DNA from: a virus
Reading direction: 5' to 3' (one strand)
Length of the DNA: 48,591 nucleotides
UHGV virus genome: UHGV-0185643
A program made the translations under genes and the position numbers. Of this stretch, positions 1 to 48,591 are shown piece by piece; positions within the stretch are counted from its first letter, which is position 1; every line of letters begins with the position of its first letter. Below the pieces are notes generated by a model that ran no database searches, was not told where the DNA came from, and saw only the letters and a program-made list of their open reading frames with translations.

Positions 1-774
1 ATGTCATCAGAAAATTTTGTCACCTTCTGGCTCGCTAGAGCCGATCTTCCATACTTTCTTGAACCTCATGAATTTTACGTTTCGGAGGCCAAGCGTAGAC
101 TTCTATCGCAGTTTGGCGATTTAGAACAAGAAGCAGAAAGGAGGGAACAACAGTATTTGGAAGCTACCTCAAAATATTTCGATCCTGATAACGATGATCC
201 AATGGCTGCCTACGAGCAAGCCTACCACGTGGGAATTAATTATGTATGGTCGCTTCTGGAGATGCAAAATACCGTGTTGTTGGCATTAACGGCAGGAATG
301 TACCACCAGTTTGATAAAAAACTAAGAGAACACACCATCAAAGAACTAAGTAACTGGTGCAAAAGAGAATTAATTACTCCCATGATCTGGAATATAACTT
401 TCCATCAGCTTATTGATTTACTCGAATGGATTGGCCTCAAAATCAATGGAACCGGATACGGAGAGAGGATCAAAGCCTGTAACTTGGTAGTAAACGTATA
501 CAAGCATGGGGACGGGCCTGCGCATCAAACACTATCATTCAATCATCCTGAGTACTATCAACACCCTACCGATGTTCGAGGTACGCAGAACATACATGAC
601 CATGATGATTTACATGTATCAGAAGAGCAATTTGTAGAGTTTGCTGACGCAATAACTGAATTCTGGAAAGCAGTTCCAGAGAATTGCTATTACTCAGATC
701 TCAAAGAAGAACCCAAATGGTTGAGTAAAGTCGTAACAAAATTCGATAAAAAACAGAAGGGAAATAGGGACTAA
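1..774 (+). CDS. Hypothetical protein (257 aa), AT-rich cargo-like gene; may be 5'-truncated by the window edge
   Basis: ORF begins with ATG at position 1 and runs to a stop at 772-774; no motif I recognise. Confidence 0.4.
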   Translation: MSSENFVTFWLARADLPYFLEPHEFYVSEAKRRLLSQFGDLEQEAERREQQYLEATSKYFDPDNDDPMAAYEQAYHVGINYVWSLLEMQNTVLLALTAGMYHQFDKKLREHTIKELSNWCKRELITPMIWNITFHQLIDLLEWIGLKINGTGYGERIKACNLVVNVYKHGDGPAHQTLSFNHPEYYQHPTDVRGTQNIHDHDDLHVSEEQFVEFADAITEFWKAVPENCYYSDLKEEPKWLSKVVTKFDKKQKGNRD

Positions 775-882
775 TTACCCATCTCAAAACATCAAGTTTG
801 CAGTGCCCTGCTCCCCGTTTATTAGTATGGAAGTTAACAATGTCTGCTTCTGACACATAACAGCCCTTAAGATGGTAACTCG

Positions 883-932
883 CCGTCATGGGGTGTCGGG
901 GGTCGGAGGTTCAAATCCTCTCGTGCCGACCA
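883..932 (+). tRNA. Partial tRNA-Pro-like sequence (anticodon loop with GGG, T-arm GGAGG-TTCAAAT-CCTCT, acceptor 3' strand CGTGCCG, discriminator A, CCA); 5' half degenerate or absent, so a pseudo-tRNA or att-site remnant
   Basis: Cloverleaf 3' half folds by eye and matches tRNA-Pro T-arm and acceptor sequences recalled from E. coli; upstream sequence does not form a D-arm or acceptor 5' strand. Confidence 0.6.
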
Positions 933-945
933 AAAATCCTCGAAG

Positions 946-972
946 AACCAGCCTGTTACGGCTGGTTTTTTT
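946..972 (+). terminator. Rho-independent terminator following the tRNA-Pro fragment
   Basis: Stem AACCAGCC / GGCTGGTT with 6-nt loop followed by a T7 run. Confidence 0.7.
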
Positions 973-1062
973 ATGCCTGTTTTCTGAACGGGGAAGCAAC
1001 GGGGAATAATTGGGGAAAAACCCCGACACAAAACATCGACTTTACCGTAAAGTTTCAGCTAT

Positions 1063-1452
1063 TCACATCACTGGGCAGTCATCAAACTCCGCGTTCCTGG
1101 CATCATTAATGATGTACGTGATAACACCAAATATTGCGTGTGAAGAATTATAGCCATCACCGTCTTCTGGCAGCACTTCTCTTCTCCCGTTCTCCAGATT
1201 TATCAGGTGGGGCTGAGGGTGAGTTCGGTATCGCTTGATCCTGAATTCCCCATCTATCGCGCATATCAGCAGCGAGCCATCACAGGCTGAAAGCGACGCG
1301 TCCACAACAAGTAGTGCCCCCTGGATTATCCCTTCCCTGAAATGTGAACACGATGCCCGCATGAAATAAGTCGCTGCGGGCTGGCTGATTAGCTGTTGAT
1401 CGAGGGAAATCCTTGTTTCAACGTAATCACTGGCAGGTGAAGGGAAGCCCAT
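1063..1452 (-). CDS. UmuD'/HumD-like S24 peptidase-fold protein starting directly at the GFPSPA motif (no N-terminal arm, no cleavage site)
   Basis: Translation MGFPSPASDYVE...DGEFRIKRY aligns by eye to UmuD from its post-cleavage residue; longer ORF 1063..1551 trimmed to the internal Met because the upstream ORF stops at 1455; no umuC follows. Confidence 0.7.
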   Translation of the reverse strand: MGFPSPASDYVETRISLDQQLISQPAATYFMRASCSHFREGIIQGALLVVDASLSACDGSLLICAIDGEFRIKRYRTHPQPHLINLENGRREVLPEDGDGYNSSHAIFGVITYIINDARNAEFDDCPVM

Positions 1453-1454
1453 GG

Positions 1455-1694
1455 CTATAGTCCTCCGTTTGGATTGAAAAGCTGAAAGGTACGGTTCTCC
1501 CCTTCCTGCGTTGATACATCGCGGAATGATGTCACATACCACTCGATCCATTCGTTAGCCTGCTTCATCGTCCAGTTCCAGTTAACCTTGCTCAGTTCCT
1601 GGACAAACCGCTGTGTGGTGACGGTCTTCCGGCCATTAGGTTCTTGCTGTATCGAAGCATGCCAGGCCATTTCAATATCGCTGCGTCGTGGCAT
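1455..1694 (-). CDS. Hypothetical small protein (79 aa) immediately upstream of, and probably co-transcribed with, the UmuD'-like gene
   Basis: ORF with ATG at 1694 preceded by GAGGGG Shine-Dalgarno at 7-nt spacing; stop 3 nt before the UmuD'-like start. Confidence 0.45.
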   Translation of the reverse strand: MPRRSDIEMAWHASIQQEPNGRKTVTTQRFVQELSKVNWNWTMKQANEWIEWYVTSFRDVSTQEGENRTFQLFNPNGGL

Positions 1695-1736
1695 CAATTA
1701 ACCCCTCTTGAATACCGGATAAAAACACAGTATAAA

Positions 1737-1756
1737 TACTGTATATCCATCCAGTA
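1737..1756. promoter_or_regulatory. Candidate LexA (SOS) box TACTGTATATCCATCCAGTA in the divergent promoter region between the small-ORF/UmuD'-like operon and the DinI-family gene
   Basis: CTGT-N8-CCAG with flanking TA/TA, the same variant I recall for the E. coli dinI operator; lies 17 bp upstream of the 1773 start codon. Confidence 0.6.
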
Positions 1757-1772
1757 AAGATGACTACAAGAA

Positions 1773-2015
1773 ATGTTCGTGGAACTCGTTTATGACAAAA
1801 GGAATTTTGATGGGCTGCCTGGTGCAAAAGATATCATTCTGGGCGAATTGACCAAGAGGGTTCACCGGATCTTCCCCGATGCTGATGTTCGGGTTAAACC
1901 GATGATGACACTGCCGGCGATCAACACTGACGCCAGCAAGCATGAGAAGGAACAGATAAGCCGTACTGTTCAGGAAATGTTTGAAGAAGCTGATATGTGG
2001 CTGGTTTCAGATTAA
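1773..2015 (+). CDS. DinI-family protein (80 aa)
   Basis: Length and C-terminal motif EKEQISRTVQEMFEEADMWLVSD resemble DinI (…QRISEILQETWESADDWF…); preceded by an SOS-box-like site. Confidence 0.65.
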   Translation: MFVELVYDKRNFDGLPGAKDIILGELTKRVHRIFPDADVRVKPMMTLPAINTDASKHEKEQISRTVQEMFEEADMWLVSD

Positions 2016-2143
2016 ACACCTTGAACCGTCATATTGCTTAAGTACAATCCGCCGTGACTGGCAATCATTCAATACTCGCACTATCGAACGTTCGCCAGTC
2101 GGCCGCAATCATGCTCTTGCATACGGCGTGGTTGCGGCAACCG

Positions 2144-3700
2144 TCAATTTTGCTGGCTACCTTTCAGCGTCTCAATCACATTCTTCAGGGAATTGAGTTC
2201 AGACATCTGTTCCTTCATCGCTCTGCCCATATAAACCATAGCGCATGCCATATCGGCCATAATGACATTATTATCAAGGGCAAGGGTATCGTCTTTGAGA
2301 CCAACCTCAATCTGATGGTCAACATATTCGTTACCGGACTCATCCACACCAACAACGTCCTCAAAAACAGGTCCACCAGGCACTATCTTTACGTACTGCG
2401 GATCAACTTTAGTCAGATCCTGGGCAATAAGGCCAAAACGCTGTGTATCCGACCCCTTATACTTAAACATGGTCGGTAACCACTGCATGACACGGTCGAA
2501 ACTGTCTTTCCCGTCCCGATATTGGATATCTTCTTTTAGATCGCGGTCTGATGTCGCATTCTTGGCGAACACGTACGATCCCTGCCAGTTTGACCCGGAT
2601 TCGTTCCATACGTCAGTAGTGATATCACCAGACTGAGGATTGAATCTGAACATCCTGTGATATCTGGCATCGCCCATAAAATGTAAGACGCCATGTGGCC
2701 AGCCATTGGCACCATTAGAAATGAGTCCCAGTGACAGACGAGTACTCCACCCACCCGATGCAGAAGAACCACCAGAAACGATTGGAGCCCAGCCACCATC
2801 ATTTCCACCAACAATGGCGGACCAGTAAGGGGTGGTCCATGGACCATCAACATCCCCCCAGCCACCCGATCCGCACTGTCCCCAGAAACCACGTGGTGAT
2901 TGTATAACCCCACCATAACCAGAAAGAAAGTTGAAACGGTATGTGTTCGCTCCTGCTCCAAAACTATTCGCGATTAGAGCAATGGCATCCAGATAATTAC
3001 CCGCACCTCGTATCCCGCCAAACTGATAGAACGAATTCCCCATCCACCCCTGCAGCTGGTTCATCATCCAGCCCAGTTCACCATCAACGTTATTCGACGT
3101 CAGTAAAATATCCTTCTTGACGCCAGCAGTGCTTTTGACGCCTGTACCCGACCCACCCGCCACCGAATTGACGCCACGGGTGCCAAGAACACTACCGAAC
3201 GTAACATCCTGAGAGTTTCCCAAAGTGAGATTATCGCGGGCCGCATTTTTATCAGGCAGATCGGCCAGGGCCTGGCTTTTCAACAAAGCATTATTGATCT
3301 GATCAATAATGCTTTTCCATGATGGTCCTGTAAACTCCGTATTGTCAGGAAGCCTGACAGTAATATTGCCGTTCGCAGAGAATAAAAGTTGCCAGTTCTG
3401 TTTGTCGTAATTCAGCCCCCGCAGCGCCTCCGTGTTCTGCACCACCATTGCGGCAGTAACCATATTCAGCGCCACACGAGGAACAGCTGACCAGGCCGCG
3501 CCAGATTGGGTTGGCCCGGTGTAATTGCTGACCAGCGTCAACGCTGTACCACTTTCCACGGACTTAACCGGAAGCGTATAGGGAACACCACCGACCGTAA
3601 CAACAATAAAATCTCCGGCCGCCACCTCAGTGGTAAACGCGGTCCCGCTGCCAGCGACCGCAGCCGAGTTATTCATCAGGGTTAATGTTCCTGCTGACAT
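2144..3700 (-). CDS. Tail fiber protein with C-terminal S74-type intramolecular chaperone (self-cleaving) domain
   Basis: Gly/Ser-rich repeats; C-terminal SDRDLKEDIQ...RFGLIAQDL...VDPQYV motif typical of endosialidase-chaperone domains; AGGAG RBS upstream of ATG. Confidence 0.75.
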   Translation of the reverse strand: MSAGTLTLMNNSAAVAGSGTAFTTEVAAGDFIVVTVGGVPYTLPVKSVESGTALTLVSNYTGPTQSGAAWSAVPRVALNMVTAAMVVQNTEALRGLNYDKQNWQLLFSANGNITVRLPDNTEFTGPSWKSIIDQINNALLKSQALADLPDKNAARDNLTLGNSQDVTFGSVLGTRGVNSVAGGSGTGVKSTAGVKKDILLTSNNVDGELGWMMNQLQGWMGNSFYQFGGIRGAGNYLDAIALIANSFGAGANTYRFNFLSGYGGVIQSPRGFWGQCGSGGWGDVDGPWTTPYWSAIVGGNDGGWAPIVSGGSSASGGWSTRLSLGLISNGANGWPHGVLHFMGDARYHRMFRFNPQSGDITTDVWNESGSNWQGSYVFAKNATSDRDLKEDIQYRDGKDSFDRVMQWLPTMFKYKGSDTQRFGLIAQDLTKVDPQYVKIVPGGPVFEDVVGVDESGNEYVDHQIEVGLKDDTLALDNNVIMADMACAMVYMGRAMKEQMSELNSLKNVIETLKGSQQN

Positions 3701-3724
3701 GGATATCTCCTGAATTAAGATAAT

Positions 3725-3752
3725 AAAAAACCCGCCGGAGCGGGTTATTTTT
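3725..3752. terminator. Bidirectional intrinsic terminator between the lipoprotein moron and the tail fiber gene
   Basis: Stem CCCGC / GCGGG flanked by an A-run upstream and T-run downstream. Confidence 0.6.
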
Positions 3753-3758
3753 GGTATT

Positions 3759-3998
3759 TCATTGAGGGCAATTCGAACTGGTGAAATTATTTTTATTCAC
3801 CCATCGCCAGTTAAAGGGATAACCGGCCCTGTACTCAGTCTGATTAACAACTTTTTGCACACCGTAAATTTGCACTGACTGGGGCTGTCCACCAAGCACT
3901 AACTCAGCCTGACAAACCGGTTTCTGTTTCTCCAGAACAGGTCCTGAACAGGCTGAAAGCACCAGGCAGACAATAACTGGAATAATTATATTTTTCAT
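3759..3998 (-). CDS. Small lipoprotein (79 aa, lipobox LSAC) moron between tail-fiber-region genes; candidate superinfection-exclusion (Cor/Llp-like in position) protein
   Basis: N-terminal signal peptide MKNIIIPVIVCLVLSAC with lipobox; AT-rich flanks; own terminator downstream. Confidence 0.6.
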   Translation of the reverse strand: MKNIIIPVIVCLVLSACSGPVLEKQKPVCQAELVLGGQPQSVQIYGVQKVVNQTEYRAGYPFNWRWVNKNNFTSSNCPQ

Positions 3999-4106
3999 TT
4001 CGATACCAGAGTTAATTATTTAAACAAAAAATAACCAATGGCATTGAATAATAAAAATAGTTTTAATAGATCAATATTCTAAAATTGATCGTTTAAATCG
4101 ATCAGT

Positions 4107-5096: not shown

Positions 5097-8000
5097 CAGA
5101 ATACCCCTGTTAATTTGCCAATCTGCACGCGGAGAACGCCATTGCCATCTTTAACGCTGTAATTCAGATTGGTCATTTTCGTTGCCCCCTCCCCGGCAAC
5201 AGCCCCATTCATTTCAAACGTTCCGTCTGATTTCATAATGGTGCCTGTTTGTCCCTGAACATAATTAGCGGAGCGCAGTTCGCCAATTTTTGCCAGAGTG
5301 ATTTGACTATACTGAATAAAAGCATCGCTGATAAACACCTGACCATTAATAGAAGCAAACGGAGAATATTGTGTATCACCGCTGCCACTCATCAGGACGA
5401 ACTGATTGGCGTTAAAGCCGACACGGGTGACTACCGGCTTACCCGCTTCGGCCAGCACGGCAATCGACATCCCGGCGTTATACATCACACCGTTTATTCG
5501 AACTCCGGTTTTAAGAGTGTAAATTGCAGATGCCCCGGTCGCATCAACCACGGCGGTGAGCTTATCTTCCAGCGCGGCAGTCACATCATTGAACTGCGCC
5601 TGCACCTGCGTCGACATTTCAGCCATGGCTTTATCGACCTGCGCAATGGTCGTTTTAACCACCAGAATATCCGCGCGTACCTCGCCGTACTGCGCCCACT
5701 GGTGTTCCACGGTTGCATGGTTGGCCAGCGCGTTCTGCAATGCGGCTTCGAGATTGGTATCAATGTCGCCAGTCAGGCGGTCACCGTCGGCAGATGTCAG
5801 GAAGTCATCAGCAATATCGCCCAGGTAGTCGTCAGCATTCGCATTAGATTCACCACGAACCCAGTCGGTCCAGTCACTCTGATTACCAATGCGATCAACC
5901 AGACGAGCCCGGTACCAGAACTCCTGACCTGCCTTCAAACCCAGTTGGGTATATGTGTGTTGAGGATACGGAACTCCTGCAAGCAGCAGAGGATTATCCC
6001 CATTTCCGTTTGCTGAATACTGCAGTTCGGTCTGGAGAGTATCACCTGTATCCGCCGGAAAGGACCAGTCAGCCTGTATGCCCCAGTTGATTGCTGTGGT
6101 GCGCAGACCAACCGGCTTGGGAACATCCCCAGTACGTCCAGTGAGATGAGTCAGCACAGAAGAGGTCCACAAACTGGACGCTCCACCAGAGTTAATGGCG
6201 CGGACTCTCACGAGGTAATCGCCTGAGAAAATCCCGGCGATCTCTATATTGCGCAAGCCTGTTTCGGGAATGTTGATCCACTCATTATCACCACGTTTCC
6301 ACTGTGCCTGATACGCGACAATATCCGCCTGAGGTTTCCCGTTTTTATCTACTGGCGCATCCCAACTCGCAACCATGGTTGCAATACGCTGCCCCTGCCG
6401 GACCGAGTCGTAACTGCTAATCGCGATATTCGTGGGCTGGCTAACCAGGCCTATCGGTAACAGACTAATCGGCGGCGTATCCAGCCGGGCGTTGTTATCA
6501 ACGGCATCGTACTTAGCCCCGTTGTACTCTGCACCGGTGATACTGTAGGTGTTCTCTTCATCGTTAAATGTCAGATTGGTTACACGGAAATACTGGAGGC
6601 GCAACTGGCCTGCATCGATAACAAAAATGGCATTAGGTTGTGGCTCAGCGGTAAAGGCAGTAGCCAGTATCAGTTGCTGGCCGTTAACCGCCTGAATGGT
6701 TCTGCTCTCAACGGTACCGCCCAGGGTACGAATCATCAGCGTATCACCCGCCACCGCACTCGTGCCGCGATCGGTAGTTACTGACTTCAACCCTGCATCG
6801 TAATCAGTAATACGTCCACCATAGACACGCCCAGACAGCCGCTCATCTGCAAACGCAAATACGGTCCCCGGCACATAAGCGAAGCCATCGAGTCCCGTCT
6901 GGACAGTGATAATACGGTCCAGAGAATTGGAGTACACTGCCCAACCACCCCGGCGCTGAGCTTCGCTTTCACGTGTGCAGCCAATCGCGGTTAGCTGAGT
7001 CTGCTTAAACTTGAACTGCTTAACCAGATCGGGAAACATCACTGCAGTAGTGCGATCCTGATAGTGGTTATCCGGGTCACTAAAGTTAATCAGCGCTGAG
7101 CTATAGCGATTCTTTTCACTGCCGCTGGAATAGGTTGGTTTCCCGACCACAGAGGCACGGGTGAGGATCTGAAGTTTTGACGTATCCGCAGGCATATCAG
7201 AGACAACATTGAACATGTTGTTGCCCCAGAAAGTCATTCCGTTGAAGCCCGCGGCAATATCTTTAATCACCTGCCAGGCATCAGCCTGGGACTGGATGTA
7301 AACGTCAAACATGAAGCGTGGCTCGGTAACGCTTCCGCCTTTCCCGTCGGGTACCTTCTGGTCGCAGCGCTGGGCGATGCGATAGAGCTCCCACTTATCG
7401 AGCATTTCTGGCGTCACGCGGCGCCCAAGACCGAAGCGCGGCTCAGTCACAACATCGAACCAAATCCACGCCGGGTTATTCGTCCAGCCCCATTTAAACG
7501 TCCCGTCCCATGTTCCGCTATAAGTCCGCGCTATTGGATCATAGTTCGAAGGGATTCGGATGATGCGCCCCTTCGGCATGCAGGAAATCTTAGGGATGTT
7601 GTTGAATGACTTTGCGTTAAAGGACACGTACAGCAGCGCTGTGTGTGGATATCGTAGGCGAGCATCGATCACCTCAGTAATCGCTTGCACCTGCGTTTTG
7701 TTCTGCAGCATCTGGCTGGTGCTGTCATCGGTGTCACGCACCACTCGAATTTGCCAGCCAGTGCTGGCTTTGGGAAGATTAATACGGTGGGTTAGTTCAT
7801 AGAGCGAACTGAGCTTCTCTGTGACGGTTTTAGTCATGACTGTCGAGTAAGCGCCACCGTCCACCGCAAGGTCAATATGGTACTGAACCGTGGTGCCGAC
7901 AATATCCCCATCGTTTTCCTGCTGCTGTAACCCAGGGATGCCAATACGAACCAGCACCGCGTCAATCTGGGTGTTACTCAGTGCGCGGGTCCATGGTGTG

Positions 8001-8305
8001 GCCTTTGTCAGCGATACGCCAACCGTAGTTTCATTCTCGACTGCAGGGAATCCCGGTATTGGTGTCTGTGTCTGTGTGCCAGGCCGGAATTCCCATGACA
8101 CATTTTCAAAATTCATCGTTCCGTCGGGGTTTCCCAACGGCGTACCGTCCAGGAATATCCGGGTCGCATCCAGGCCACCAGCAAACTCACCCTCCCCGAG
8201 CGCCAGCAGCATGCGGCAGCGCGCCATTGACTGAGCCGAATCGGGCTGTTCTACAGGTGTATGCTGCTTCTGGCTGCCACCCTTTGCACCAGTGATCACT
8301 TCCAT
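5096..8305 (-). CDS. J: Host specificity / central tail fiber protein J
   Basis: About 1069 aa; N-terminal MEVITGAKGGSQKQHTP resembles lambda J N-terminus; position after I; start trimmed to the internal Met so it does not overlap I. Confidence 0.85.
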   Translation of the reverse strand: MEVITGAKGGSQKQHTPVEQPDSAQSMARCRMLLALGEGEFAGGLDATRIFLDGTPLGNPDGTMNFENVSWEFRPGTQTQTPIPGFPAVENETTVGVSLTKATPWTRALSNTQIDAVLVRIGIPGLQQQENDGDIVGTTVQYHIDLAVDGGAYSTVMTKTVTEKLSSLYELTHRINLPKASTGWQIRVVRDTDDSTSQMLQNKTQVQAITEVIDARLRYPHTALLYVSFNAKSFNNIPKISCMPKGRIIRIPSNYDPIARTYSGTWDGTFKWGWTNNPAWIWFDVVTEPRFGLGRRVTPEMLDKWELYRIAQRCDQKVPDGKGGSVTEPRFMFDVYIQSQADAWQVIKDIAAGFNGMTFWGNNMFNVVSDMPADTSKLQILTRASVVGKPTYSSGSEKNRYSSALINFSDPDNHYQDRTTAVMFPDLVKQFKFKQTQLTAIGCTRESEAQRRGGWAVYSNSLDRIITVQTGLDGFAYVPGTVFAFADERLSGRVYGGRITDYDAGLKSVTTDRGTSAVAGDTLMIRTLGGTVESRTIQAVNGQQLILATAFTAEPQPNAIFVIDAGQLRLQYFRVTNLTFNDEENTYSITGAEYNGAKYDAVDNNARLDTPPISLLPIGLVSQPTNIAISSYDSVRQGQRIATMVASWDAPVDKNGKPQADIVAYQAQWKRGDNEWINIPETGLRNIEIAGIFSGDYLVRVRAINSGGASSLWTSSVLTHLTGRTGDVPKPVGLRTTAINWGIQADWSFPADTGDTLQTELQYSANGNGDNPLLLAGVPYPQHTYTQLGLKAGQEFWYRARLVDRIGNQSDWTDWVRGESNANADDYLGDIADDFLTSADGDRLTGDIDTNLEAALQNALANHATVEHQWAQYGEVRADILVVKTTIAQVDKAMAEMSTQVQAQFNDVTAALEDKLTAVVDATGASAIYTLKTGVRINGVMYNAGMSIAVLAEAGKPVVTRVGFNANQFVLMSGSGDTQYSPFASINGQVFISDAFIQYSQITLAKIGELRSANYVQGQTGTIMKSDGTFEMNGAVAGEGATKMTNLNYSVKDGNGVLRVQIGKLTGVF

Positions 8306-8315
8306 ATTACATCCA

Positions 8316-8340
8316 TAAAAAAAGCACCCAATTGGGTGCT
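8316..8340 (-). other. Intrinsic-terminator-like hairpin plus U-tract between I and J
   Basis: Stem AGCACCC / GGGTGCT with AATT loop followed on the minus strand by a U7 run, directly upstream of the J start. Confidence 0.5.
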
Positions 8341-8360
8341 TGATATTCAGAAAGGAGTTT

Positions 8361-8954
8361 TCAGATGTCTTCTGCGACGATGCCAGCACTGATGATGGCG
8401 CCGCCAATCTCGCGCTCACCATAAAGAAGCGCGACCGGGTTACCCATCGCAAGGGTGTTCACCGAGCCACCGAAGGCATATGAGGGTCTATTGTCAGGAT
8501 CGTCTCGCCCCTGTAGTCCTTTGGGCTGGGGCGAAAGCATCTGGTAAATCCCACCAGCCATCATTCCGATACCAGCGGAGACCATACCCGCGCCAATGAT
8601 ACCTGCTGAACCGAACGTCATGCCCGTGACGACGATGCCCGCCACAACCATGACAGCACCCAATATTGTCTGGAACAAACCCGCTTTTTTTGCCCCTTCC
8701 ATCACGGGTGCTATGCGAATATCGGTGCTTCCGGCTAGGTTCTTAAAATCATCCGCGCCAATGTTGCGCCTGCCGCGAAACACCGCGAACGTCATACCAT
8801 TCTTTTTGGCGTTCAAAAGATAGCTTTCCAGCCCGTCCAGGTTGATACATAACGCCTTCACGGCTTCCGCTGACGTCTGCACCGCCAGTTTATGCACGCG
8901 CCCAAATCGCGCACCCAGCGCACCGTACAATCGAATCGTGGTTAAGCGCGCCAT
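8361..8954 (-). CDS. I: Tail assembly protein I
   Basis: Position between K and J; Gly-rich hydrophobic C-terminal region typical of lambda I. Confidence 0.75.
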   Translation of the reverse strand: MARLTTIRLYGALGARFGRVHKLAVQTSAEAVKALCINLDGLESYLLNAKKNGMTFAVFRGRRNIGADDFKNLAGSTDIRIAPVMEGAKKAGLFQTILGAVMVVAGIVVTGMTFGSAGIIGAGMVSAGIGMMAGGIYQMLSPQPKGLQGRDDPDNRPSYAFGGSVNTLAMGNPVALLYGEREIGGAIISAGIVAEDI

Positions 8955-11011: not shown

Positions 11012-12625
11012 ATGAATATTGTGCATTATGCAGCCATTGGAGCTGTAGCTTTCGTAGTTGTTCTAACAATTTTGGTGATAAACATCATTAAATTAAAGTC
11101 AGCCAAGGCTGATGCAGCAGAAAAGGCGGCAAAACTTGAGCGTTACGCGTCAATCACCAATGCTGAAACAGAAGCTGAACGAATCGTGAATGCAGCTAAG
11201 CAAACCGCAGAAGAGTTAATTATTGATTCGCAGAATAACCTTGACGAGGCAAAAGCTGAAGCAGCCAACACTATTGCAGCCAGTGAAAAAGATGCAAGAT
11301 CTATAACACAGCGTGCGGAGGATATTCTATCAGATGCGCGTTTAGCAGCTAAGCGAATGAACGCAGAGGCGCTGACCGCTGTAGAAACACAAAGAGTCAA
11401 GCGTGCAGAAATTGAAAAACAGATTGATGAATTGCGTAAATCCTATCGTGAGAAAAAAATCACTTACGATGAGCTGACGGAAGCCCTGTCAATTTATAAA
11501 GATGATATGGAATTTGCTGACATGGGGTTCTATGCACCACACTTCGATTTTGATACCTCGGCTAGTTTTCAGGATGCGATCAAGGCATGTCGCGAACGGC
11601 AAAAAAATCTGCTACGTGACAAAACTGAATTTGGCGCAATACATTGCCCTACTGAATGGACGGTTGGCGGCTCTAAAAGTGAAGGTCGGAAAATGACCAC
11701 TCGCGGCATTCAGATGACAGCACGTGCATTCAATGGTGAGTGTGATGCAGCTATTGCAAACTGCACATTTAAAAACGTTTATCAAATGGAGCAAAGAATT
11801 TATAAAGCCTTTGATGCCTTGAATAAGATGAATGAGGTTAACCAGATTTACATCAATCGTGCTTTTTTAGATTTGAAGCTGGATGAACTTCGACTTACAC
11901 ATGAATATCGTTTGAAAAAACAAGAAGAACGAGAAGAACAACGTGAAATCCGCGCTCAGATGGCTGAGGAGAAGCGAGCTCAAGCCGAAATTGATCGTGC
12001 ACTTCGAGAGGCTGAAGATGAAGAACGCCGCGCCCAAAAAGCGTTGGATAAAGCCCGAAAAGAAATGGAATCGAAGCTAGCCCAAATGACAGCTGAGCAA
12101 GTTGAGAAACACCAAGCGAAGGTATCCGAATTAGAACATGCCTTAGAAGAGGCATTGTTGAAAGGCCAAAAAGCTCTTTCTATGGCTCAACAAACTAAAC
12201 GCGGCCACGTGTACGTTATCTCTAATATTGGTTCGTTTGGTGATGATGTTTTTAAAATAGGAATGACACGTCGACTTGACCCTCAAGATCGAGTGGATGA
12301 ACTGGGTAGTGCATCAGTCCCATTCCTGTTCGATGTTCATGCAATGATTTTCAGTGAAGATGCACCAACAATGGAAAACATGCTCCACCAGCGTTTCAAT
12401 GAGCAACGCACTAACCTAGTTAATAAGCGTAAAGAGTTTTTCAATGTAAAATTAAGCGATATCAAAGATGCTGTGTTTGAGATCGCAGGTAAAGATGTAG
12501 ATTTTATCGAAACAGCAACTGCTCAGCATTATTATGAAACAAAGGCAATTCGTAAGCAGAAAGCGGATATCATTTCAGTTGTTCCTCAAGAGGAAAAACT
12601 ACCTAAATTTGCGGACGCAATATAA
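11012..12625 (+). CDS. Membrane-anchored coiled-coil protein (537 aa) with C-terminal T5orf172/GIY-YIG-like (MUG113-type) domain; candidate defence or exclusion effector
   Basis: N-terminal hydrophobic helix IGAVAFVVVLTILVINII; long charged heptad-like segments; C-terminal GHVYVISNIGSFGDDVFKIGMTRRLDPQDRVDEL...EFFNV motif; AGGGA RBS; transcribed against the tail operon; AT-rich. Confidence 0.6.
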   Translation: MNIVHYAAIGAVAFVVVLTILVINIIKLKSAKADAAEKAAKLERYASITNAETEAERIVNAAKQTAEELIIDSQNNLDEAKAEAANTIAASEKDARSITQRAEDILSDARLAAKRMNAEALTAVETQRVKRAEIEKQIDELRKSYREKKITYDELTEALSIYKDDMEFADMGFYAPHFDFDTSASFQDAIKACRERQKNLLRDKTEFGAIHCPTEWTVGGSKSEGRKMTTRGIQMTARAFNGECDAAIANCTFKNVYQMEQRIYKAFDALNKMNEVNQIYINRAFLDLKLDELRLTHEYRLKKQEEREEQREIRAQMAEEKRAQAEIDRALREAEDEERRAQKALDKARKEMESKLAQMTAEQVEKHQAKVSELEHALEEALLKGQKALSMAQQTKRGHVYVISNIGSFGDDVFKIGMTRRLDPQDRVDELGSASVPFLFDVHAMIFSEDAPTMENMLHQRFNEQRTNLVNKRKEFFNVKLSDIKDAVFEIAGKDVDFIETATAQHYYETKAIRKQKADIISVVPQEEKLPKFADAI

Positions 12626-35525: not shown

Positions 35526-35545
35526 TACTGTGTTTTTATACAGTA
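35526..35545. promoter_or_regulatory. LexA (SOS) box TACTGTGTTTTTATACAGTA upstream of the DinI-like gene
   Basis: Perfect CTGT-N8-ACAG palindrome with TA flanks, 19 bp upstream of the start codon. Confidence 0.7.
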
Positions 35546-46118: not shown

Positions 46119-46319
46119 ATGGATGATATTTTGCTGACGTCAGACCTGACCAGTCGATACAAAATCTCACGTAAAACCCTTTGGTCATGGCAAAGCACAG
46201 ACACGATGCCGCGGGGTTTTGCGAAGCCGTTCCCCGCCCCGGACTTCCCCGGTAACCCTAACCGCTGGAAGTCGGAGTCAGTCAAAGAGTGGGAAGGTGT
46301 GAAACAGCCAATTAACTGA
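46119..46319 (+). CDS. AlpA-family excisionase / transcriptional regulator
   Basis: Motif [20 protein letters not shown]; adjacent to the integrase gene; GGAGA RBS. Confidence 0.7.
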
Positions 46320-47505
46320 ACGGCTCACCGATGATGTTTTCAAGATGGCTCTGCCAAACGTGGAGCCAGTGTTTTTGATCATCGATGTAGTCATGCAGGT
46401 TATAGTGCGCCATCACGCCAACCATTTGGTGACCAAGTAACTTTTCAATCACATGCGGCGGACAGCCAAGTTCTGAAAGATTTGTTGCGATTGTTCTTCT
46501 CATATCATGGAGAGACCAGGGCTCCATGCCGGATTCTGACCAAATATACCTGGCGTAGTTCGAAGCAACTGGCGGATGAACCGGGACGTCTTTAATTTCC
46601 CCATCCAATAAGCGCTGTGAAGTGACTAAATGCTTTGTGTTGATCTTCTCAAGATGATTTTTTACCAGTCCCACCGCAGCATCAGAAAGAGCCCTTCTCA
46701 TGTGCACTCGCGTTTTGTAACTTCCAGCAGGAACTATCCATTCATTTTCATCCAGCTTGAACCATGACCTTTCGCTTAACCGAATCTCTGCCGTCCTACA
46801 GCCGGTCAACATAATAAATTTCACAAGAAACACGGACTCTATGGACATGCGGTTTTGCAGCCACCGATAAATAGCCACCAGCTCACGATCATCCAAGCGC
46901 CGCGTTCTCTTTTTCGGTTTTTGGCCAACGTCAGTGGGTAGCAATCCCTCGAGCGGATTGGTCGATATTACGCCTCGGTTAATACAGAACCTGAATGAGC
47001 GTTTGCACAGCGAAAGCATATAATGAGCCATCACCCTGCTTTCAATCTGATCAAAAACATCTATCCAGTGCCTTTTTGTCGAATTGTCGACTTTGACGTT
47101 TCGCATCGGTTCGGCGATATGCTTGGCAAATACCAACTGATAATAACCTGTCTTTGTCAGTTGATTAGCGATGCAGTGTTTCTCGATCCAATAATTGAAT
47201 GCTTCCGATACGGCCATGGAACCTTCGCGGGTCAATTTCTCCAGCTTTACTTGCTCTCGGGGATCGAGTCCTTCAGTAAGCCAGATTCTGAATTGCTGAC
47301 GCCTTTCCCTTGCCTGAGCAATACTCATTGCTGGATAATCGCCGACATTGAGTTTTACAGCTTTGCCTGCCCATCTGTACCGGTAGAAGAAAGAGACCTT
47401 TCCGGCCAGACTGATTCTTGCGTTGAGTCCGTGAGAATCTGAAATAATTTCGATATCATCGCGTTTCTTGCCAAGGGCCTTCCTGAGCTTTGTGTCAGTG
47501 ATCAT
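46312..47505 (-). CDS. int: Tyrosine integrase (P4/CP4-57-like, N-terminal arm-binding domain)
   Basis: N-terminal [10 protein letters not shown]...FFYRYRW arm-binding-type domain; C-terminal catalytic motifs HDMRRT ... LGHQ ... HY; start trimmed to an internal Met. Confidence 0.85.
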
Positions 47506-47731
47506 TGAATAGGTACACATTTGGCTTTTGAGTACGCAAAAGTGTACACAAAACTCATTGCTCAAAGATACCCACAATGTAACACTTGTACTCGGAGTGT
47601 GATAATTGGAAGGCTGAAAGGCAGGCGGCAGAAGGGTTCAACGTAACAGAACGTTTTTATGCGAAATTCTTCGAAATGGGCTGAATGACAATACAAAAAA
47701 GTATTTTAAAAACAAAACAAAAACAGACATT

Positions 47732-47756
47732 GGGCACCGCCAGCGGTGCCCTTTTG
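47732..47756. terminator. Bidirectional intrinsic terminator (terminates host yciY-like gene)
   Basis: Stem GGGCACCG / CGGTGCCC with T-tracts on both sides. Confidence 0.7.
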
Positions 47757-47759
47757 GGA

Positions 47760-47933
47760 TCAGATGCTGTGGATCGCAAACAGCAACGAGTTGCGTTGAT
47801 GGTTGAGAATGCACTTTCTGATAGTGTGGATACGCATATTACGACGCGATTGTCCTTCAAGCCAACGTGCTTTACGGCGGCTAGCCTGACGTAGCATCCG
47901 CCAGCGTCCCACTTCCGTTCTACTACGCTTCAT
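47760..47933 (-). CDS. yciY: Small basic protein, YciY-like (host)
   Basis: MKRSRTEVGRWRMLRQASRRKARW... resembles E. coli YciY as recalled; adjacent to cls. Confidence 0.5.
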   Translation of the reverse strand: MKRSRTEVGRWRMLRQASRRKARWLEGQSRRNMRIHTIRKCILNHQRNSLLFAIHSI

Positions 47934-48075
47934 GTTTACTACTCTTTCAGTCACTGAGTGACCATTATAACGCCACACCGAATGCAGACCAGCGGTTTTC
48001 CCGTGTTTTTATTTGCCAGATTAATCCTGATGCGTAAACTCTTAACAATACGCTTTCAAAAGGATTTTTAAATTT

Positions 48076-48591
48076 ATGACAACCTTCTACACCGTGGTGA
48101 GTTGGCTGGTCATTCTGGGTTACTGGGTACTCATTGCTGGCGTAACATTACGCATTCTAATGAAACGACGCGCAGTGCCCTCCGCAATGGCCTGGCTTTT
48201 GATCATCTATATTCTGCCATTGGTAGGGATCATTGCTTATCTGTCCTTCGGTGAGCTCCACCTGGGTAAACGCCGCGCCGAACGCGCCCGGGCAATGTGG
48301 CCGTCAACGGCCAAGTGGCTGAACGATCTTAAAGCCTGTAAGCATATTTTTGCGCAGGAAAACAGCAGCGTCGCCTCCTCCTTATTTAAACTGTGCGAGC
48401 GTCGTCAAGGAATCGCCGGCGTTAAGGGAAATCAGCTGCAGCTGCTCACCAGTTCAGATGACGTGATGCAGGCGCTGATCCGTGATATTCAACTGGCGCG
48501 CCACAACATAGAGATGGTGTTCTACATCTGGCAGCCGGGTGGTATGGCCGATCAGGTAGCCGAGTCGTTAATGGCTGGCGCGGGGGGGGGG
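48076..48591 (+). CDS. clsA: Cardiolipin synthase A, N-terminal part (host gene, truncated by window end)
   Basis: [55 protein letters not shown]... is near-identical to enterobacterial ClsA N-terminus. Confidence 0.9.

Follow-up and report, generated by a model that had tools for sequence, protein, structure and literature searches.

The tRNA-Pro fragment near the left end of the analysed DNA (48,591 nucleotides of the virus genome UHGV-0185643, called here the window) is very probably the relic of a proL-type attachment site carried inside a phi80-like prophage that is itself integrated at yciI, and the terminator that follows it would be its remaining function. The fragment is neither a boundary nor a gene, and it gives no evidence for a second element; it is an ordinary mosaic relic. 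A preliminary description, made from the sequence alone, had proposed an att remnant or the relic of an earlier integration, which holds in spirit, the fragment being a decayed tRNA-Pro copy within a proL-type arm. The features on which this reading is based are collected in Table 1.

Table 1. Positions of the attachment-site relic, its neighbours and the right end of the prophage in the window.
Feature	Position	Strand	Evidence
ORF1, cargo, 257 aa, phrog_19541 (PHROG of unknown function)	1-774	+	PHROG match
tRNA-Pro copy, decayed 5' half	851-882	+	Family alignment to proL
tRNA-Pro(GGG) proL 3' part, exact	883-932	+	50/50 identity to K-12 proL
Intrinsic terminator, GAAGAACCAGCC-TGTTAC-GGCTGGTTTTTTT	942-975	+	Folding; alignment with K-12 proL downstream region
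Probable phage-side arm of old attachment site	976-1030	+	Three direct GGGGAA repeats at 990-1017
umuD-like gene and 79-aa ORF, transcribed toward the relic	1063-1694	-	Pfam Peptidase_S24; PHROG UmuD-like
LexA-box-like site TACTGTATATCCATCCAGTA	1737-1756	+	Pattern search; divergent promoter region of umuD-like operon and dinI
dinI-like gene	1773-2015	+	Pfam DinI, E 4e-21
Integrase (tyrosine recombinase; Arm-DNA-bind_3 and Phage_integrase)	46312-47505	-	Pfam; PHROG integrase
Integrase-proximal arm of phi80-type attachment site	47506-47691		Homology to phi80 attP region
Attachment core TACAAAAAAGTATTTTAA, yciI 3' end	47692-47709		Comparison with five empty sites
Host yciY	47760-47933	-	Translation; Pfam YciY in related loci

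Structure of the tRNA-Pro fragment and its terminator

The best preserved part of the fragment, CCGTCATGGGGTGTCGGGGGTCGGAGGTTCAAATCCTCTCGTGCCGACCA, corresponds to canonical positions 27-76 of the E. coli K-12 proL tRNA-Pro(GGG) and is identical to it at every position. It runs from the first stem base of the anticodon arm through the variable loop and the T-arm to the 3' strand of the acceptor stem and the CCA end, and the anticodon arm, the T-arm and the CCA end are intact, as the preliminary description had it. Judged by this identity, the stretch would be the identity block (O) of a proL-type attachment site. The 5' half, in which a degenerate D-arm had been suspected, matches proL at 15 of 26 positions in the family alignment and carries a 5-nt insertion in the D-loop, reading GGTAACTCG where proL has GGTAGCGCA. 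The 5' strand of the acceptor stem is TGACACA as compared with CGGCACG in proL, and its pairing with CGTGCCG (5/7) leaves an acceptor stem with two mismatches. The D-arm has no stem, being broken by the 5-nt insertion, and the T-arm still folds. Since the acceptor stem has two mismatches, the D-arm is destroyed and the 5' half is decayed, no tRNA can be produced from 851-932. ARAGORN, which the preliminary description had recommended as a check for an intact tRNA, predicted 0 tRNA genes over the window. The Rfam search over the window gave no match at the gathering threshold, and the tRNA model scored 15 bits on the fragment against a threshold of 29. Weak Rfam matches to STnc50 (minus strand, E 0.18), HPnc0260 and RNAI were discarded as far below threshold and accounted for by the terminator and T-arm hairpins.

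The terminator, judged a good one at the outset, is separated from the CCA end by a 9-nt spacer and consists of a 12-bp stem followed by a run of seven T. Homology with the terminator of the native proL extends up to TTTTTTTAT, with a compensatory change in the stem (CCAGCC/GGCTGG in the window, CCAACC/GGTTGG in K-12), and the hairpin is kept in 53 of 53 unique variants, again with compensatory stem changes. The calculated stability of the hairpins of related copies ranges from -9 to -21 kcal/mol, with a value of -17.5 for the 50-nt downstream stretch of the window. For transcription on the minus strand, just a weak TTCTTCG tract comes after the hairpin. A simple consensus terminator scan of the window did not list this hairpin, probably because its stem pairs into the T tract, and its absence from that scan does not mean that there is no terminator at 942-975. 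The cargo genes on the plus strand, ending at 774, and the umuD-like operon on the minus strand converge on the hairpin, an arrangement from which we infer that the surviving function of the block may be termination, mainly of cargo transcripts.

Phage-side arm, SOS genes and cargo

The triple GGGGAA repeat next to the terminator is unique within the window, with 0 such arrangements expected by chance, and is common to the attP of the phages Eeyore, Flotzy and Phi06_2987 and also to the UTI89 prophage and Gifsy-2. Eeyore has an additional TGGGGAAAAAC in the integrase-proximal arm, just past the integrase stop codon. The repeats may represent arm-type integrase binding sites.

The operon facing the relic comprises the umuD-like S24 peptidase gene (1063-1452) and the 79-aa ORF (1455-1694). 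In the divergent promoter region that it shares with dinI, a second LexA-box-like site with one mismatch is found at 1713-1732, and a LexA site is annotated in the corresponding position of phi80. The window holds three LexA-box-like sites where 0.88 are expected, a count that is not significant alone. The dinI-like gene shares ~71-73% nucleotide identity with dinI of Eeyore, Flotzy and phi80. A second perfect TACTG-N10-CAGTA LexA-box-like site (TACTGTGTTTTTATACAGTA) was seen in the early region, at 35526-35545. Among the 56 ORFs scanned, another ORF besides 1773-2015 matches the DinI family (E 8.9e-26), which suggests two dinI-like genes in the prophage.

On the other side of the relic, ORF1 is the final gene of a variable cargo block and reads toward the terminator. 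It has no Pfam or PADLOC match. A 356-aa gene to the left of it, ~0.2-1.3 kb beyond the window start on the overlapping contig L003 (8696-9766; see below), matches the defence protein PD-T7-5 (PADLOC E 3.9e-102), and ORF1 could be either a partner of PD-T7-5 or a separate uncharacterised defence gene. The possibility that ORF1 is an inverted homologue of the GIY-YIG gene of UTI89, which also encodes 257 aa, was considered and dropped, as the two proved unrelated on comparison. Further left, directly after the real att arm, L003 carries a gene for a SRAP protein (YedK-like, SOS response-associated peptidase; 7818-8465). SRAP, umuD-like and dinI genes recur together at this end of the prophage as an accessory set with an SOS theme.

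Ends of the prophage and its integration module

The ends of the element were located with the help of L003, a metagenomic contig that overlaps the window by 10,774 bases with full identity and adds 10 kb leftward. The gene order on this contig is ompW, yciC, yciB, yciA, tonB, yciI, SRAP, the 356-aa gene, ORF1 and the pseudo-tRNA. A search for the empty site among contigs encoding an identical YciY yielded five prophage-free loci, all with a spacing of 50 bp between yciY and yciI. Their alignment to both sides placed the junctions at L003 7640 and window 47692, with a 16-bp overlap. The sequences of the left junction (CCGTACAAAAAGGTTTTTTGA), the right junction (CAATACAAAAAAGTATTTTAA) and the empty site (CCGTACAAAAAAGTATTTTAA) thus give TACAAAAA as the core, located at the last codons of yciI. 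It is present at both ends of the insert and as a single copy in each of the five empty sites. The partner of the core copy listed in Table 1 is TACAAAAAGGTTTTTTGA, at L003 7625-7642 (window -2375 to -2358), and yciI gets from the phage a synonymous replacement of its 3' end. The insert measures ~50,067 bp, its left end lying 2.37 kb beyond the window start and the pseudo-tRNA ~3.2 kb inside. The element is thus a ~50-kb phi80-like prophage at the 3' end of yciI, with both boundaries resolved. The suggestion that the tRNA fragment marks a junction or prophage boundary does not stand, as the empty locus, with its 50 bp between yciY and yciI, puts one junction at 47692-47709 and the other 2.37 kb before the window start.

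A direct repeat shared by the left and right parts of the window had also been suggested as a check. None of at least 11 nt was found between 1-4000 and 47400-48100, and therefore the left att lies outside the window. A 12-nt match, TAGGTACACATT (L003 7716 and window 47510), was rejected as the att core by the empty-site alignment; it is an arm-type motif present in both phi80-like arms.

As initially described, the integrase at the right end adjoins yciY and cls, the latter beginning at 48078, and not a tRNA gene. The right flank of the window is 80.6% identical to the kch-yciY-cls region of E. coli. A run of ~10 G (gcgggggggggg) within cls at the window end (48580-48591) looks like a sequencing or assembly artefact at the end of the contig. 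The specificity of the integrase is unrelated to the proL relic. The Pfam scan of 56 ORFs matched every family to at most one ORF and therefore indicates a single integrase in the prophage; a homologue of the Eeyore integrase was not found in the window by tblastn. The same scan shows a complete lambdoid set, with Q, NinG, replication O, terminase, tape measure, tail and lysozyme. A 537-aa ORF on the plus strand (11012-12625), opposite to the surrounding minus-strand block of tail genes, may be an inserted moron or mobile element.

The closest parallel for the integration module is phi80 (NC_021190), in which the same order is seen: DUF4060, a xis-like ORF, the integrase (minus strand), attP, accessory genes, dinI, tail fibre and a cor-like gene. 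When attP is reconstructed and aligned with the corresponding region of phi80, the identity is 73% over 331 nt. The arms are homologous, as is the core, which occupies the 3' end of yciI. In the alignment, the core annotated in phi80, ACAATTTAAGAAAGTGT, falls on ACAATACAAAAAAGTAT of the window, whose core differs from that of phi80 in fitting the host yciI (TACAAAAAAGTATTTTAA). The two elements also differ between attP and dinI, where phi80 has pinL and pseudogene fragments, whereas the prophage described here has SRAP, PD-T7-5, ORF1, the proL relic and the umuD-like gene. In three further loci encoding an identical YciY (L008, L013 and L017), the yciI site is occupied by different prophages, with an integrase and DUF4060 module that are nearly identical and early genes that vary (RecE/RecT variants, KilR, YdaS/YdaT, BstA-like). 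The att site is thus heavily used in the host group.

Comparison with proL-type attachment sites

The proL gene is documented as a site of prophage integration in E. coli (PMC8767318); the literature search for an earlier description of the relic returned only proL in this role. Positions 887-1028 of the window match the free E. coli phages Eeyore (PP925821), Flotzy (PP925827) and Phi06_2987 (KM389287) with 83-86% identity, and the homology extends from the anticodon loop across the terminator into the GGGGAA arm. In Eeyore and Flotzy the homologous block is placed directly downstream of the integrase gene and is followed by a umuD-like gene (minus strand), a small ORF (minus), dinI (plus) and a tail fibre gene (minus), the order found at 1063-3700 of the window. 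Lysogen loci in which ARAGORN predicts a tRNA-Pro(GGG), with LapC encoded upstream, represent the native proL locus. Downstream of the intact proL, these lysogens have the terminator, GGGGAA arm and umuD-like gene seen in the window, with 97.1% identity to window 933-1678 in the case of L066. Since this layout is shared with both free phages and proL lysogens, the fragment is best explained as the integrase-distal half of a proL-type site.

The attP of the three phages and the attL at lapC-proL thus have the same O block and type of terminator as the window, together with the three GGGGAA repeats and the neighbouring umuD-like gene, small ORF, dinI and tail fibre gene. Unlike in these sites, no adjacent or cognate integrase accompanies the relic, which is internal to a prophage integrated elsewhere. 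Its left side differs as well, being a decayed 5' half that comes after cargo, neither the integrase-proximal arm of Eeyore nor an intact 5' half. With the classical tRNA fragments of the attR type the relic has in common that it is a partial tRNA copy that stems from the biology of the integrase and is not a gene. Such fragments, however, are found at the junction of element and host, with host DNA next to them, whereas the one described here is inside the element, with phage DNA next to it.

Related relics and the cargo hot spot

Related copies of the relic are present in ~80 other prophage loci, including Gifsy-2 and the UTI89 prophage. An exact-pattern scan (tRNA 3' end, 48-60 nt, CGGRGAA-N5-GGGG) had 13 matches among species-representative genomes and 85 among viral contigs, the intact lapC-proL loci included; the pattern biases this sample toward intact copies. 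The decayed 5' half of the window type is found in ~25 loci, with the consensus TTCTGGCACATAGC-nGCC-n7-GGTnGCnCn-CCGTC, a group that takes in copies on the chromosomes of C. murliniae and C. braakii as well as the UTI89 prophage linked to ssrA. Conservation among these copies is weak in the 12 nt that precede the pseudo-tRNA (mean pairwise identity 0.60), and farther upstream the sequences are unrelated. Within the family sharing the 5' half, the mean pairwise identity is 0.94 at positions 27-59, which lie outside the search pattern, 0.77 in the 5' half and 0.74 in the arm. In other classes of relic the 5' half is missing, and just vestiges precede the anticodon stem. A vestigial tRNA stretch of 10-15 nt before the anticodon loop is common to several classes, whose breakpoints are spread over linear positions 23-33.

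The genes upstream of the block are highly diverse, with at least 27 unrelated clusters over 100 loci. These neighbours include LapC, the Eeyore integrase, DUF4236, AbiTii, GtgE, SRAP, DUF7380/DUF4209, NUDIX, T5orf172, histidine phosphatase, Bro-N, GIY-YIG and several proteins that have no Pfam family, as well as a weak HEPN-like match (HEPN_RiboL-PSP) under the Pfam cutoff. Downstream, the neighbour is a umuD-like gene in 50 of 97 loci and SRAP in 29 (79/97 together). The block is thus the border between conserved accessory genes of SOS type and a hypervariable cargo rich in defence and virulence genes.

Two of these copies reside in well-known prophages, and neither is annotated. The UTI89 copy (L001 6001-6196, NC_007946 2902880-2903075) is found between a GIY-YIG gene and a dinI pseudogene; it has the same decayed 5' half as the window, with 86% identity over 829-1024 and two substitutions in the 3' block. 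The copy in Gifsy-2 of Salmonella LT2 (L020 1507-1634, NC_010393) comes directly after the effector gene gtgE and is followed by a SRAP-homologous region (L020 1780-2347), also unannotated in the record, next to sseI; it differs from the window in having no 5' half and an internal deletion in the anticodon region. Both share with the window the tRNA-Pro 3' block, the terminator, the GGGGAA arm and the placement near the integrase-distal prophage end, between variable cargo and genes of SOS type (SRAP or dinI), and the two prophages have integration sites other than that of the window.

Alternative explanations

That the pseudo-tRNA site can still recombine, serving proL phages or satellites as a secondary attB or for docking, or allowing cargo to be swapped by an integrase acting in trans, would agree with the intact core (50/50 from the anticodon stem-loop to CCA), the three intact arm repeats, the higher conservation of the O block than of its flanks within the relic family, and the highly diverse cargo that abuts the block within a few nucleotides. 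We consider it unlikely because neither a proL-flank junction nor a nested integration was found: the 5' variant of the window joined to the native proL downstream flank occurs in 0 of 5426 complete E. coli genomes, and a nested integrase-arm junction at the relic in 0 of 13 genome loci. The window moreover has no cognate integrase, and the upstream neighbours include no integrase next to the 5' variant of the window, as an active attP with this variant would have. The cargo breakpoints are also off the presumed crossover point, with 10-15 nt of vestigial tRNA retained left of the loop. A joining of the diverse cargo at the anticodon-loop crossover by site-specific recombination was dropped in view of this shared vestigial tRNA and of the breakpoints at 23-33. 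A related proposal, in which the block is a selectively maintained landmark that forms the fixed right-hand border of the cargo hot spot and a substrate for a proL-type integrase in trans (a platform for cassette exchange or docking), appears improbable too; if true, it would place such a docking or cassette platform inside prophages that integrate elsewhere. One observation does count against the relic interpretation: the 3' block is better conserved than the flanks in relics, whereas a neutral relic predicts even decay. This excess could possibly come from repeated recent derivation from active sites, which the 97% match of L066 supports, from gene conversion with the host proL, or from a residual role as a recombination substrate.

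The hypervariability of the cargo among related prophages, and its ending exactly at the pseudo-tRNA, would also be expected if the relic marked a tandem junction, with a small cargo island (SRAP, PD-T7-5 and ORF1) beside the prophage. We regard this as very improbable, given that the 3.2-kb cargo block has no integrase, that a single pair of att cores surrounds the 50-kb insert, with empty sites that have none of the insert, and that neither a third copy of the att core nor a repeat of at least 11 nt was found. The phi80-type integrase-distal arm is furthermore contiguous with the start of the cargo, and phi80 too has accessory genes between attP and dinL. There is, finally, hardly any likelihood left for a decayed phage-encoded tRNA-Pro, as had been entertained in the preliminary description, that once served in translation, or for a tRNA-derived small RNA of regulatory or anti-defence function. 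A full gene length is still recognisable and the T-arm still folds, but intact copies exist solely at the host lapC-proL locus, and the terminator and the arm belong to an attachment site that stands beside the integrase in free phages. Where the 5' half differs between family members, acceptor pairs are lost and not compensated, and no plus-strand promoter-like site was found upstream of the fragment, the single one in 1-2200 being at 2021.

Origin and significance of the relic

According to the relic interpretation, 851-1030 would be the tRNA-side, integrase-distal half of an attachment site from lambdoid phages that integrate into the host proL. This half-site would have been stranded once the integration module was changed to the phi80-type integrase and attP, which target the 3' end of yciI. 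The old site is separated from the new attP by SRAP, PD-T7-5 and ORF1 and is therefore found ~3.2 kb inside the prophage. Its 5' half has decayed, and the cognate integrase is absent. The ancestor of the relic may have been an attP or, alternatively, a captured attL that took the host tRNA along through imprecise excision. The terminator between the cargo genes and the LexA-controlled umuD-like operon would be the sole function kept, as its position and compensatory stem changes suggest, and the block may serve passively as a homology anchor for the exchange of cargo between prophages.

Fragments of tRNA genes are widely used as markers of the ends of prophages and islands. An internal fossil attachment site such as this one can mislead boundary calls based on them; for the window, the prophage boundaries are now settled and a false boundary signal is removed. 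Because the block separates a conserved SOS module from variable cargo, it is a convenient landmark for finding the cargo hot spot. The relic also documents the replacement of integration modules in lambdoid phages.
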